Source: Lysobacterales bacterium
GTDB taxonomy: Bacteria > Pseudomonadota > Gammaproteobacteria > Xanthomonadales > SZUA-5
DNA length: 64,000 bases
Assembly (NCBI GenBank): GCA_022844165.1
Contig: JALHMH010000022.1
Location: 1-64,000, forward strand
Reading direction: 5' to 3'
The notes beneath the pieces are model-generated. The model was not told the DNA's origin. It was given only the letters and a program-made list of their open reading frames with translations, and searched no databases. The first letter of the stretch is position 1. Each line of letters begins with the position of its first letter. Shown here one piece after another: positions 61,164-64,000 of the stretch. The position numbers and the translations under genes are program-made.

Positions 61164-62627
61164 TCACGACGCGTCAATTCTGACAAAACCTTTCGTCAGA
61201 TTTTCTGCCAGAAGCTGTTCCGCAATCGCCGCAGCGCGAACATCATTGGTCGCGATATCGGTCGTGATCTTCAGGGGCTCAGCCCGCTTGGCCGAATAGT
61301 CGGTCCAGTAGATCAAGTAGGGAAACGGTACGTCGCCACCTTTGCGGACAACCACCAGCTTGCGCAACATTTCGCCTTTGGCATAAAGCTCGCGGCGCAC
61401 GATCTGTGTGTTTGCGCTGGCCTCGGCCGGTGTCGGCGGTTCGGCGCGATCGAGAATCTGCTCAATACGCGCGCCGCCGCTTTTCCATTCTTTGTCGTCG
61501 CGGAGTTTTTCGAATCGCGCGAACGACAGTCGCGGGCAGGGCGTCAAACCCAAAAATCGATAGCTGCCCTGATTCTCGTCCCAGGCGATCAGCTGCGTGC
61601 GCTGCTCGCGCCCACCTTCGGCCGCAATCAGATCTTCGCCGTGGATTTCGGCGATCAGCTTCGGTCGGACGAATTGTACGGCCCGGCCGGACGAGTCGGT
61701 CATGGCCAGCGGCGCATCTACCTTCAGCGGCCGCAGTTTGTCGAGCAAGGCGATGCGTTCTGCGTCGGTCAAACCCGAGCCCACGCGCACAAAGGTCTGC
61801 ACCAGCGCTTCGACCTCCGCACCGGGATACAGGAGCCCGGTCAGCATTGAGGTAACGCCATACTGGCCCTCGAACTCGCCCTCGACAAAGCCCATGACCA
61901 GCGCATCGACACTGCGATGCGGTTTGATTTTGAAGATCTCGGCGCGTGTCAACCGGCGAACGACAACGCCTTCGCCACCGGTATCCACGGCATGCGCAAA
62001 CGCCGCAGCCACACCGGTTTCGGGAACGACCTCCGCTGCTTGCGCGTGCACCGGCGCTGCACCATCCGTGCCGAATACCGATCGCAGTTTGTCAAGCGTT
62101 GTCTTGAAATCCGCCTGCTGCGCGCGCAGGTCTTTGCCATCGAGCATCACAATATCCAGCAGCGCGAGTTTGAGGCGTGCGATGTCCTCGTCGTTGCTGC
62201 CGAAACTGATGCGAATCACTTCGCTGACGCCGGAGCGGCGTGTGCTGTCGCCGCTTCGAGTCGTGTCCAAATACAGCTCGCAACGCAGTAGCGTGCGTTG
62301 AACACCAGCGGACTGAAGCTTCTGGGCGAGCGCATCCAGCGCAGGGAACCCTAAACGCACACGCCCGCCGGGGGCCGAAAAAGCGAAGGGCTCCTGGCCA
62401 TGCTGGTAATAAACGAACACGCCTTCGCCATCGTATTTGTGCGCCACCACCACCGGATCGCTGCCAGCAAAGCGTATCGGCAACTCTGCTGGCGACAGCG
62501 CCTGAATCTTGCGCATCACCTGATTCTCGAAATCGGTAGCGACAGCCATCAGCACATGGTCGCCGACGGCCCCGCCCGTGGCGATGCCATAGCGGCCACG
62601 CATGCTCAACTTGCTGCGATCGATCAT
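61164..62627 (-). CDS. Divergent ATP-dependent DNA ligase with WGR-like C-terminal domain
   Basis: Nucleotidyltransferase motifs I HKYDGEG, III LRCELY, IIIa LLDIVMLDG, IV EGVVVR, V FKIKP; OB fold VRVGSGLTD..VRPKLIAEI; motif VI SFARFEKLRDDK; AGGA RBS before the ATG at 62627. Confidence 0.85.
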   Translation of the reverse strand: MIDRSKLSMRGRYGIATGGAVGDHVLMAVATDFENQVMRKIQALSPAELPIRFAGSDPVVVAHKYDGEGVFVYYQHGQEPFAFSAPGGRVRLGFPALDALAQKLQSAGVQRTLLRCELYLDTTRSGDSTRRSGVSEVIRISFGSNDEDIARLKLALLDIVMLDGKDLRAQQADFKTTLDKLRSVFGTDGAAPVHAQAAEVVPETGVAAAFAHAVDTGGEGVVVRRLTRAEIFKIKPHRSVDALVMGFVEGEFEGQYGVTSMLTGLLYPGAEVEALVQTFVRVGSGLTDAERIALLDKLRPLKVDAPLAMTDSSGRAVQFVRPKLIAEIHGEDLIAAEGGREQRTQLIAWDENQGSYRFLGLTPCPRLSFARFEKLRDDKEWKSGGARIEQILDRAEPPTPAEASANTQIVRRELYAKGEMLRKLVVVRKGGDVPFPYLIYWTDYSAKRAEPLKITTDIATNDVRAAAIAEQLLAENLTKGFVRIDAS

Positions 62628-62674
62628 GTCTTGATTCCTGGTTCTTGTCTCAGACCATAGTCGCAATCTGTGGT

Positions 62675-63382
62675 CTATTCGATTTCCGCGGTGCTTCGCT
62701 CTGGCAGCTTCAATTCCTGATCCGACAGCAGCAGTAACAGCCGATAGCGTCCTTCGTGGTCGACCTCGCCGTGCAGAAATGCGCGATAGGCGGTCCCAGC
62801 CTCGCGAATGACGAGCGGCTGATTGCCCTTCGGTCCGGCCCCGAGCACCGCTACTTCACTCTTCTGCGCCAGGTCACGCGCCAGTGTTTGAAGAAATTCG
62901 TGCGTCAGTCCATCAACGTGCGCCAACTGCAGCGTTTGTTTGAACGCAAACTGCGTTAGCGCTTCGACGGCCGGCAGACGCTTGCCGAGTTTGACCGGAT
63001 GCAGCTCGTTCAAATTCGAATGTCGAACGAGATGAGGCCTCCTGACCTTTTCCTGATCGGACGCATCGTAGACGATATCGACGTCAGCGAAATCGCCGAT
63101 CGGTTTGGGCGCCGGATCCGCTGGATCAAACCATGCGGGCGTCACGCTATCGGCATCGATCGGCGTGCCCGCGAGCGCCAAATCCAGCTCCGGATCCCCA
63201 GCCACAAGCGCGGCAAAGTCAACCGCCGCGTTCTTGCGCGCACCGGTCACAAGGCGCGAAGTCGACACCTCTCCTGCGCTGGTGAAATTGCGGGCCAGCA
63301 CTTTGGGCTTTTCCGGCGGCAACCCGTGCAGATCAACGCGCGCGCTCTTGCCTTGGTATTCGAGGTGCAGAGTAATAGGCAT
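62675..63382 (-). CDS. Hypothetical protein, possible Ku-like beta-barrel protein (B)
   Basis: Co-oriented between two clustered genes. The C-terminal half (FAFKQTLQL..THEFLQTLARDLAQKSEVAVL..LVIR..YRAFL..YRLLLLLSDQELKLP) follows the Ku-core pattern by eye. Confidence 0.65.
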   Translation of the reverse strand: MPITLHLEYQGKSARVDLHGLPPEKPKVLARNFTSAGEVSTSRLVTGARKNAAVDFAALVAGDPELDLALAGTPIDADSVTPAWFDPADPAPKPIGDFADVDIVYDASDQEKVRRPHLVRHSNLNELHPVKLGKRLPAVEALTQFAFKQTLQLAHVDGLTHEFLQTLARDLAQKSEVAVLGAGPKGNQPLVIREAGTAYRAFLHGEVDHEGRYRLLLLLSDQELKLPERSTAEIE

Positions 63383-63472
63383 AAATGTGGGTCCGTTTGG
63401 TACCTTTGACTGACGATCGGGAACGTCAGACGCCGGTCTTGAAGTCATCGCTACGAGCGCAAAATCAGGCCG

Positions 63473-64000
63473 TTACACCATCGAAAAATCCAGATCATCG
63501 GCGTCATCGCTTTCGCCTTCGGCGTCGAAGAAATCGTATGCAACGGACAGGCTCAAGAAGGTGCTGCGCTTGCCGATGCCAGTAAGCAGAAACGCCTGAT
63601 CGCTGCGCACCAGCAGCAGAGCGTCCTTCGGGCTATGGCTCTTCCGATAGTTGAACGTGGTTCGGTACAGCCCAGGACCCAATCCGGAACCTGTCAACGG
63701 ATACACATCGGTGACCTGGAACGTGGCCAGCTCACTCATCGACACGGCTTCCAAGGGCGATTCGACATCGAAGGAACTGGGCTTCAGTTCGGCGGGCTGA
63801 TCGTCGATCAGTGTTCGCACTTCTTCAACCGGCGAGCCGTCGGGATCGGCCTTCAATGTCGATACAGCATTCGTGGGCAGGAGCCGCCCGTCGGCCAATA
63901 AAATGCCGCGACTGAGCGGCTTGCCGTCCTTTTCGGCGATGCGTTTTGCGTAACCGTACAGCGCCTTCTTATCGACTTTCGCGCCGATTTCGAAGCAGAT
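63473..64000 (-). CDS. Hypothetical protein, possible Ku-like protein (A), 5'-partial, with an acidic C-terminal tail
   Basis: The frame stays open to the window edge: ICFEIGAKVDKKALYGYAKRIAEKDGKPLSRGILLADG...DVYPL..GLYRTTFNYRKS..ALLL..AFLLTG...DDADDLDFSMV. Confidence 0.65.
   Translation of the reverse strand: MCFEIGAKVDKKALYGYAKRIAEKDGKPLSRGILLADGRLLPTNAVSTLKADPDGSPVEEVRTLIDDQPAELKPSSFDVESPLEAVSMSELATFQVTDVYPLTGSGLGPGLYRTTFNYRKSHSPKDALLLVRSDQAFLLTGIGKRSTFLSLSVAYDFFDAEGESDDADDLDFSMV

Follow-up and report, generated by a model that had tools for sequence, protein, structure and literature searches.

The locus described here lies at the right end of a stretch of 64,000 nucleotides (nt) from a Lysobacterales bacterium (GCA_022844165.1, contig JALHMH010000022.1), which is the whole of the DNA analysed and is called the window in what follows. 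The window is the start of a 77,909-base contig (C22) belonging to a genome of 4.68 Mb that is 99.97% complete. Three genes are arranged there head to tail, all on the minus strand: gene A, gene B and a gene for an ATP-dependent DNA ligase. From predicted structures, gene order and its conservation, we consider it reasonably probable that this A-B-ligase cassette encodes a heterodimeric end-binding factor of the Ku fold, cryptic at the sequence level, together with its dedicated ligase, which would make up a minimal end-joining module.

Gene A (contig positions 63473-64039, 63473..64000 in the window, minus strand) encodes a protein of 188 amino acids, predicted to be a Ku-fold subunit in which a long arm is inserted and the C-terminus forms an acidic tail; it overruns the window by 39 nt, its first 13 codons being outside. 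An intergenic spacer of 90 nt (63383..63472) separates it from gene B (62675..63382, minus strand), which encodes the second predicted Ku-fold subunit, of 235 amino acids. The open reading frame (ORF) of B extends to 63448, and the gene was taken as 62675-63382 instead of 62675-63448 because all 336 homologues begin at the second methionine (MPITLHLEY). The ATP-dependent DNA ligase (61164..62666, minus strand) is composed of nucleotidyltransferase and OB domains followed by a C-terminal domain of its own; its ORF has 500 amino acids if read from a TTG and 487 from the ATG at 62627, the latter being the probable start, judged from homologues and ribosome-binding context. With these starts the gap between B and the ligase is 47 nt and that between A and B 90 nt, and the ORFs are present as an earlier note on this DNA had listed them, as three co-oriented minus-strand genes with gaps of about 90 and 47 bp.

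Neither A nor B is recognised by its sequence. No Pfam match was returned for either at E<=1, none of the three proteins had a match in PADLOC-DB 2.0 at E<=0.1, and NCBIfam gave no match for A and for B one chance match (NF006564, 14.3 bits against a cut-off of 257, E 0.015). To judge from their homologues, A and B are real, conserved families: a word-indexed search found 89 homologues of A and 336 of B, all unnamed or 'hypothetical', and an exhaustive search with B found 351 clusters at 50% identity. When A and B were compared with each other by hhalign the probability was 0.5%, with no detectable relation, and when they were compared with a profile of canonical Ku, made from the 22 PF02735 proteins of genomes of the host's order, it was at most 0.23% for A and for B. 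A search of all PDB sequences with profiles of A and B (hmmsearch) returned no Ku and nothing relevant. The earlier note had described the two proteins as dissimilar to each other, as lacking canonical Ku signatures and as likely to be annotated as hypothetical, all of which holds, while its motif-by-motif reading of a Ku core layout in both of them is supported neither by hmmsearch against the PDB nor by hhalign against Ku. As there is no sequence similarity to Ku, common descent is unproven and the case rests on predicted structures. Membership of the Ku family fails by sequence, while the likeness to Ku in predicted fold, predicted pairing and gene context is strong. Several long members of the B family have C-terminal tails which are rich in lysine, alanine and proline and basic, with a net charge of up to +48; one member (P0236) matches the histone-H1-like HC2 and one long member carries a SAM domain. 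An Atlas search with one B-family member gave no usable match.

AlphaFold2 models of A and B were built from alignments of 42 sequences, and their mean predicted local distance difference test (pLDDT) values are 80.4 for B and 76.5 for A. Both models are beta-barrels in which the first hairpin is followed by a long insertion, the arm, modelled with lower confidence. With Foldseek against the PDB, B gave 84 matches at E<=1e-3, all those listed being Ku chains with Ku80 (3.1e-6) and Mycobacterium tuberculosis Ku (6.3e-6) as the best, and A gave four, again all Ku among those listed, with Bacillus subtilis Ku as the best (2.2e-4). VIA, a structure search independent of Foldseek that covers 48,161 representative chains, placed the same four chains at the top for A and for B, namely M. 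tuberculosis Ku, B. subtilis Ku and two Ku80 chains. The Z scores of B were 13.2 with M. tuberculosis Ku (root mean square deviation (rmsd) 2.6 Å, 113 residues), 13.1 and 12.7 (6erf) with Ku80 and 12.4 with B. subtilis Ku. Those of A were 8.9 with M. tuberculosis Ku (162 residues, rmsd 9.1 Å), 8.8 with B. subtilis Ku (150 residues), and 8.1 (101 residues, rmsd 3.3 Å) and 7.9 (6erf) with Ku80; the alignment of A with bacterial Ku, spanning 150-162 residues, includes the arm. In the viral library BFVD, B had only two matches at E<=1e-3, both of them phage Ku proteins (a mycobacteriophage Ku and a 'COG1273 Ku-homolog'), and no further match before E 0.07. Ku ranks first in all five structure searches made with A and B.

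The runners-up in VIA share the barrel core. For B these are the SPOC domains of PHF3 (Z 11.7), SPOCD1 (11.3) and FPA (10.7), the whole group of SPOC domains (PHF3, SHARP, FPA, SPOCD1), INTS14 and the ACID domain of MED25 ranging from 8.7 to 11.7; for A they are INTS14 (7.1), MED25 ACID (7.0) and SPOC domains (5.0-6.2), so that the group ranges from 5.0 to 7.1. Unlike the proteins of the cassette, these are monomeric eukaryotic modules which bind proteins or phosphopeptides and are not known to have a long arm or a link to a ligase. A and B are both predicted to have the Ku/SPOC beta-barrel, with Ku as the best match each time, and in this the Ku-type barrel proposed for both in the earlier note is upheld by the models.

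The complex prediction covered the protein chains of A and B. Its three runs gave ipSAE values of 0.79, 0.80 and 0.79, while the best of three controls gave 0.00; the mark used for this score is reached by 58 of 80 solved complexes and by 2 of 110 mismatched pairs, a calibration which is only rough with our own alignments. The runs share at least 79% of their contacts and the pLDDT of the partners is at least 79. The interface is made of 302-358 residue pairs and includes both arms (A 22-79; B 21-46 and 75-107), and it also brings together matching helix-strand elements from each barrel (A 104-112 with B 142-148). As predicted, this interface is what would be expected from an intertwined, pseudo-symmetric Ku-like dimer, and a dimer of this form may close a ring around DNA. 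An A-B heterodimer had been suggested in the earlier note, and as a protein pair it is predicted well above the controls.

The ligase matches PF01068 at 26.2 bits, equal to the cut-off (28.4 bits in the genome-wide search), and the OB domain PF04679 at 43.8 bits against a cut-off of 27.5; no other Pfam domain was found on it, and neither a LigD polymerase nor a LigD phosphoesterase. Its best NCBIfam match is TIGR02779, the ligase domain of non-homologous end joining (NHEJ), at 49.4 bits against a cut-off of 227.75, and TIGR02776 scores 36.3 bits against 373.2. The scores are far under all NCBIfam ligase equivalog cut-offs, so that the protein is not an equivalog of any named class of ligases. 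Among solved chains, that of the M. tuberculosis LigD ligase domain is closest to it (1vs0, E 2e-6). In an alignment of 28 full-length cassette ligases, K77, D79, G80 and E81 of motif I (AHKYDGEG) are invariant; K77, numbered on the 500-residue ORF, is the presumed adenylation site (KYDGE, codon at 62436..62438, minus strand). The positions which we take to be motifs III, IV, V and VI, under names of our own assignment, are likewise conserved. On its sequence the cassette ligase is a divergent, motif-intact member of the ATP-dependent ligase superfamily, and the description already given of it, as a ligase with its catalytic motifs but without the LigD polymerase or phosphoesterase, agrees with the Pfam and NCBIfam scans and with the alignment.

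The last 100 or so residues of the ligase (61167..61469, minus strand) form a C-terminal domain without known family which is conserved across cassette ligases. It had no Pfam match at E<=0.05, and an Atlas feature search returned only unnamed clusters. An assignment as WGR domain was rejected (no PF05406 at E<=1; hhalign against five WGR-ligases, probability 0.25%). Its shorter homologues are seven unnamed short proteins, probably fragments. One B-family protein (P0294) bears this domain at its own C-terminus (38% identity, 107 aligned columns, E 1e-14), a fusion which hints that the domain is a module of the A/B-ligase partnership, unless it is a deletion artefact. The only other ATP-dependent ligase of the genome is a LigB-type protein of 525 amino acids (contig C17, 47509-49086) with DNA_ligase_A_N, A_M and A_C domains; the cassette ligase differs from it, the DNA_ligase_A_N domain being a feature of the LigB-type protein. 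The upstream neighbour of the LigB-type gene encodes a protein of 292 amino acids without a Pfam match.

One genome from each of 185,579 species was scanned by pattern, which yielded 32 loci with relatives of B; these we call the near branch. Judged by their record titles, fourteen of them are from Lysobacterales or other Gammaproteobacteria, about nine from Verrucomicrobiota and one from a metagenome-assembled genome (MAG) of Promethearchaeota; Haliangiales (Myxococcota), Burkholderiales, Cytophagaceae (Bacteroidota), a cyanobacterium and an acidobacterium contribute one each, and a few of the loci carry doubtful automatic MAG labels. The order A-B-ligase on one strand is found in 30 of the 32. 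Of the two exceptions, L009 begins 308 nt before B, so that A is not assessable there, and L024 has an ABC permease gene in the place of A. The ligase directly follows B in 31 loci (the exception is L004), the stop of B overlaps the start of the ligase in 23, which implies coupled expression, with the 4-nt ATGA type of overlap in 21, and the gap between A and B is at most 200 nt in 28 of the 30 loci holding A. A more distant sub-branch of B, 25-40% identical within itself, was confirmed in at least 596 metagenomic stretches, of which 80 loci were kept. Here B has an A-family gene immediately upstream in 62 of 64 assessable loci and a cassette-type ligase immediately downstream in 43 of 58; the complete trio is present in 39 of 50. 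The recurrence of this gene order is far beyond chance, and the claim that the three genes co-occur as a unit elsewhere is borne out by both branches. Where no ligase follows in the distant branch, B is succeeded by a gene that varies from locus to locus (DUF2779, caspase-FGE, HEAT repeats, unknowns) or by none. What does not vary is thus the A-B pair, which the ligase accompanies in most loci but not in all.

Clustering of all flanking ORFs of the 32 loci gave no other widely shared family and no conserved integrase or transposase. In a flank sample of 111 proteins, two per side from 33 loci, the only recurrent Pfam set was that of a second ATP-dependent ligase of about 440 amino acids, with DNA_ligase_OB_2 and a C-terminal WGR domain. 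It is found in five related loci (L022, L025, L030, L031, L033; e.g. L031:10314-11645), as the first or second gene behind the cassette ligase. The locus on the MAG labelled Promethearchaeota, an Asgard lineage (L034:2364-6318, GC 33%), carries a very divergent cassette (E values 5.9e-11 for A, 1.1e-29 for B and 1.8e-34 for the ligase), and the gene after its ligase encodes a P-loop kinase joined to a PNK3P 3'-phosphatase, an end-healing enzyme of the PNKP type. Genes for NYN and caspase-domain proteins are nearby.

Protein A ends in DDADDLDFSMV (63476..63508, minus strand), an acidic tail with a conserved D-F-x-M-hydrophobic tip. 

Among 42 A sequences D184 and F185 of this tail are invariant and M187 is at least 90% conserved, and a strict pattern for the tip fits 27 of the 32 A ORFs of the near branch and 60 of the 72 of the distant branch, the misses being mostly single-residue variants. 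Residues 173-188 are disordered in the AlphaFold2 model (pLDDT <50). Disordered acidic tails with a hydrophobic end recruit partners in SSB and in Ku80, whose tail recruits DNA-PKcs. The last 30 residues of A had no match by phmmer against PDB sequences, so the likeness to the Ku80 tail is one of analogy; the tail is the likeliest candidate for a peptide that brings in the ligase or some other protein.

The host genome has no recognisable NHEJ kit: PF02735 Ku, the LigD phosphoesterase PF13298 and the LigD Prim-Pol PF21686 were all not found in it. Of 22 other genomes of the host's family, 13 have B, always together with the ligase, and two further incomplete genomes have ligase fragments at contig ends; B was found in none of 16 genomes of other families of the order and in none of 400 other genomes of an even sample of the phylum. 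Canonical Ku was met with in 21 of the 78 other genomes of the order that were sampled. A distribution complementary to that of canonical Ku was rejected, all three Ku-bearing genomes of the host's family carrying the cassette as well (3 of 14 cassette-bearing genomes of the family). With Ku and cassette coexisting in these three, the cassette does not simply stand in for Ku.

In the mechanism that we propose, the three genes would constitute a self-contained operon for end joining of the Ku-plus-ligase type. A and B would fold as Ku/SPOC beta-barrels with the long arm inserted after the first hairpin and would pair as an intertwined heterodimer, which, by analogy with Ku, would bind broken double-stranded DNA ends. 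The co-translated ligase, with a full motif set and no polymerase or nuclease module, would seal the bound ends, and the acidic tail of A, with its DFSMV end, would recruit the ligase or another partner. The proposal draws on gene order and its conservation, the predicted folds, the heterodimer predicted with its controls, the ligase motifs and the lack of a canonical NHEJ kit in the genome; DNA-end binding, ring closure, ligase recruitment and a role in the repair of double-strand breaks are what we infer. The context is consistent with DNA ends, as seen in the basic tails of the B family, the second ligase with a WGR domain (five loci) and the PNKP-type enzyme (one locus). The structural and functional inference of the earlier note is largely borne out by predicted folds, pairing and conserved linkage, and a functional guess from gene order can hold even where its motif alignment fails.

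Several observations weigh against this proposal. A and B are without sequence similarity to Ku or to each other, the best Z scores of A (8.1-8.9) are barely above the range that VIA calls common, and for B the SPOC domains, which bind phosphopeptides and not DNA, come close behind Ku (Z 11.7 against 13.2). The A:B complex may have passed partly from the model's memory of solved Ku dimers, and the pass would then speak of likeness, not of binding. Within the near branch L024 has B and the ligase without A, and of the 58 distant-branch loci that could be assessed, 15 have no ligase behind the A-B pair. Neither a polymerase nor a nuclease accompanies the cassette among the clusters of flanking ORFs or the 111 flank proteins, so only compatible or clean ends would be joinable. 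Canonical Ku is present in 3 of the 22 other genomes of the host's family, all three with the cassette. SOS control was considered and rejected: upstream of A in 31 loci there was no match to any of five LexA-box-like patterns, and no 8-mer was common to more than five loci. Among public sequencing runs holding the stretch no RNA run is listed, and six DNA runs from three studies hold part of it.

Among the other explanations the one which survives best, and which we regard as unlikely, is that a Ku-fold A:B pair binds DNA outside classical end joining, in end protection or tethering, in the sealing of nicks or gaps or as a nucleoid-associated protein, with the ligase as an accessory in some lineages. 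The greater constancy of the A-B pair than of the ligase in the distant branch (62 of 64 against 43 of 58) is in line with such a role, as are the lack of a linked polymerase or nuclease, the histone-H1-like basic tails of some B-family proteins and the coexistence of the cassette with canonical Ku in three genomes. It fits less well with a ligase placed directly after B in 31 of 32 loci and overlapping it in 23, an arrangement of coupled expression, and with added neighbours which are end-repair enzymes (the WGR-ligase and the PNKP-like protein).

It is also conceivable, and in our view improbable, that A and B are SPOC-like adaptors for proteins or phosphopeptides, regulating or localising the ligase without binding DNA ends. 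SPOC domains are the next-best structural matches (Z 11.7, 11.3 and 10.7 for B, 5.0-6.2 for A), and in the host genome a gene for an FHA-PP2C phosphatase lies directly upstream. All five structure searches nevertheless place Ku first, the alignment of A with bacterial Ku extends over 150-162 residues and takes in the arm, the predicted heterodimer has a large interface through the arms, and no Pfam SPOC match was returned for A or B. The FHA-PP2C gene was considered as a fourth member of the cassette and rejected, since it adjoins the cassette in none of the 32 other loci; with it falls the suggestion that the cluster continues beyond the window.

A role in anti-phage defence or counter-defence, or in the maintenance of mobile elements, for example by resealing self DNA after restriction or by protecting linear ends, is to be rated as low as the adaptor explanation. 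The anti-phage function that the earlier note had entertained could find some comfort in the patchy distribution across phyla (B in 0 of 400 genomes of the phylum sample against 13 of 22 in the host's family) and in a few loci beside conflict-type genes, which are a PLD-SNF2 protein (L024), caspase and NYN proteins (L034) and a type IIG restriction-modification enzyme (one locus). It found none in the searches: the three proteins have no PADLOC match, and of the 111 flank proteins only the second ligase is recurrent, defence matches being sporadic, so that the flanks are not defence islands. A phage origin was rejected on a pattern scan of IMG/VR, in which 0 of 11 pattern matches were confirmed and no viral contig had the family, and there is no conserved integrase or transposase nearby. 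The GC content of the loci, from 33% to 70%, tracks that of the host, which suggests long residence. Very improbable is, finally, that the fold predictions mislead and that A and B are unrelated small beta-barrel proteins merely lying beside a ligase, since against the moderate pLDDT (80.4, 76.5) and low-confidence arms of what are predicted models, and the missing Ku sequence signal, stand two independent aligners and three libraries converging on Ku for two unrelated sequences and a gene order strictly conserved across phyla.

The end-joining module proposed here resembles bacterial Ku (PF02735/COG1273) with LigD or LigC in that a small protein with the predicted Ku core fold is encoded beside an ATP-dependent ligase, in that the Ku proteins of M. 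tuberculosis and B. subtilis are among the best structural matches and in that the ligase domain of M. tuberculosis LigD is the nearest solved ligase. It differs in having two different subunits in place of a homodimer, both without PF02735 similarity, a ligase with no polymerase or phosphoesterase and with a private C-terminal domain, and in A a conserved acidic peptide at the end in place of the basic C-terminus of Ku. The lysine-rich basic tails of some B-family members recall the canonical Ku of M. smegmatis, in which, in the accessible part of the source, lysine-rich C-terminal repeats are described as modulating DNA binding (PMC3553676). With Ku70/Ku80 and DNA ligase IV the cassette shares a heterodimer of two dissimilar Ku-fold subunits, as predicted for A:B, and Ku80 tops the Foldseek matches of B; A and B are much smaller, have neither a vWA nor a SAP domain and have no detectable sequence relation to these proteins. 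The nearest precedent for a bacterial Ku heterodimer appears to be Ku3-Ku4 of Sinorhizobium meliloti, where two ku genes in one operon are both required in one pathway and a heterodimer was proposed from genetics, according to the part of that paper accessible to us (PMC6379672). As described there, Ku3 and Ku4 are canonical Ku paralogues which work with a full LigD, whereas A and B stand outside recognisable Ku and have their own ligase-only enzyme. The ligase shares with the LigC, LigB and LigE classes the nucleotidyltransferase and OB core and motifs I-VI, and differs from them in having no NCBIfam equivalog and in its extra C-terminal domain of about 100 amino acids.

No published description of an A-B-ligase family was found in the literature searched, which is in agreement with the earlier note, where it was put forward as a candidate undescribed system; supplements and subscription journals were outside that search, so a prior description is possible. 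A 2025 survey of Ku evolution reports, in its accessible part, recognisable Ku proteins only (PMC11936186), and a metagenomic ligase survey, which sorts ligases by Pfam architecture, makes in its accessible part no mention of such partners (PMC10140301). On the most likely reading, the cassette would be a previously unseen variant of end joining by Ku and ligase, cryptic in its sequence and widespread among environmental bacteria, where the family is common by the counts given above for B (351 clusters at 50% identity; one sub-branch in at least 596 metagenomic stretches). A bolder reading, which we offer tentatively, is that of a second prokaryotic end-joining pathway, invisible to annotation and independent of Ku and LigD, in which an obligate Ku-fold heterodimer would act with an acidic recruiting tail and its own ligase; this could bear on the origin of Ku70/80. 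If the label of the Promethearchaeota contig, with its divergent cassette beside a PNKP-like gene, is true, a heterodimeric Ku with a partner recruited through a tail would not have originated with eukaryotes.

In surveys of bacterial NHEJ, genomes are counted with the profiles of Ku and LigD. If the cassette is functional, such surveys miss a whole class, including genomes without a recognisable NHEJ gene such as that of the host. It would also provide a prokaryotic model of a heterodimeric Ku with a recruitment peptide in its tail, a compact set of three genes for end joining that genome engineering might use, and a data point on the divergence of the Ku fold which is relevant to the origin of Ku70/80.

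Some single loci show peculiarities of their own. In L024 (L024:2930-8382, a cyanobacterial MAG) B and the ligase are followed by a protein of 1081 amino acids with PLD-nuclease and SNF2-helicase domains, which matches the PADLOC candidate 'HKD+Snf2'. In L004 (L004:8705-15697), from the closest relative in the same genus (G419, contig C40), about 7 kb lie between B and the ligase, with genes for a family-2 glycosyltransferase, a teneurin-TTR-like/CarboxypepD_reg protein and unknowns; this is either a real insertion or a MAG assembly join. The cassette of L032, from a MAG labelled Akkermansia muciniphila, is broken, A and B being two ORFs each and the ligase 373 amino acids long. The labels of L032 (Akkermansia), L022 (Klebsiella) and L030 (Bifidobacteriaceae) look inconsistent with the Verrucomicrobia-like sequences that they carry. 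In the metagenomic locus L121 (L121:5699-8869) the cassette-type ligase continues into an AAA+ ATPase (PF00004) at its C-terminus, the fused protein having 1056 amino acids, and no A was detected upstream.

A promoter scan found no sigma-70-like site, and terminator-like hairpins numbered 7 against 4.3 +/- 2.1 in shuffled sequences, which is not above expectation; the scan for both is uninformative. One such hairpin sits between gene A and the FHA-PP2C gene, which encodes a phosphatase of 540 amino acids with FHA and PP2C (SpoIIE) domains on the minus strand (64231-65853 of C22), 191 nt upstream of A. Further along C22 (66226-68145) two long ORFs of 582 and 506 amino acids, without Pfam match, overlap on opposite strands. 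Downstream of the ligase lies a gene for a phosphonate-binding protein, and the ORFs further downstream are taken for housekeeping genes, as judged from the ORF list alone.

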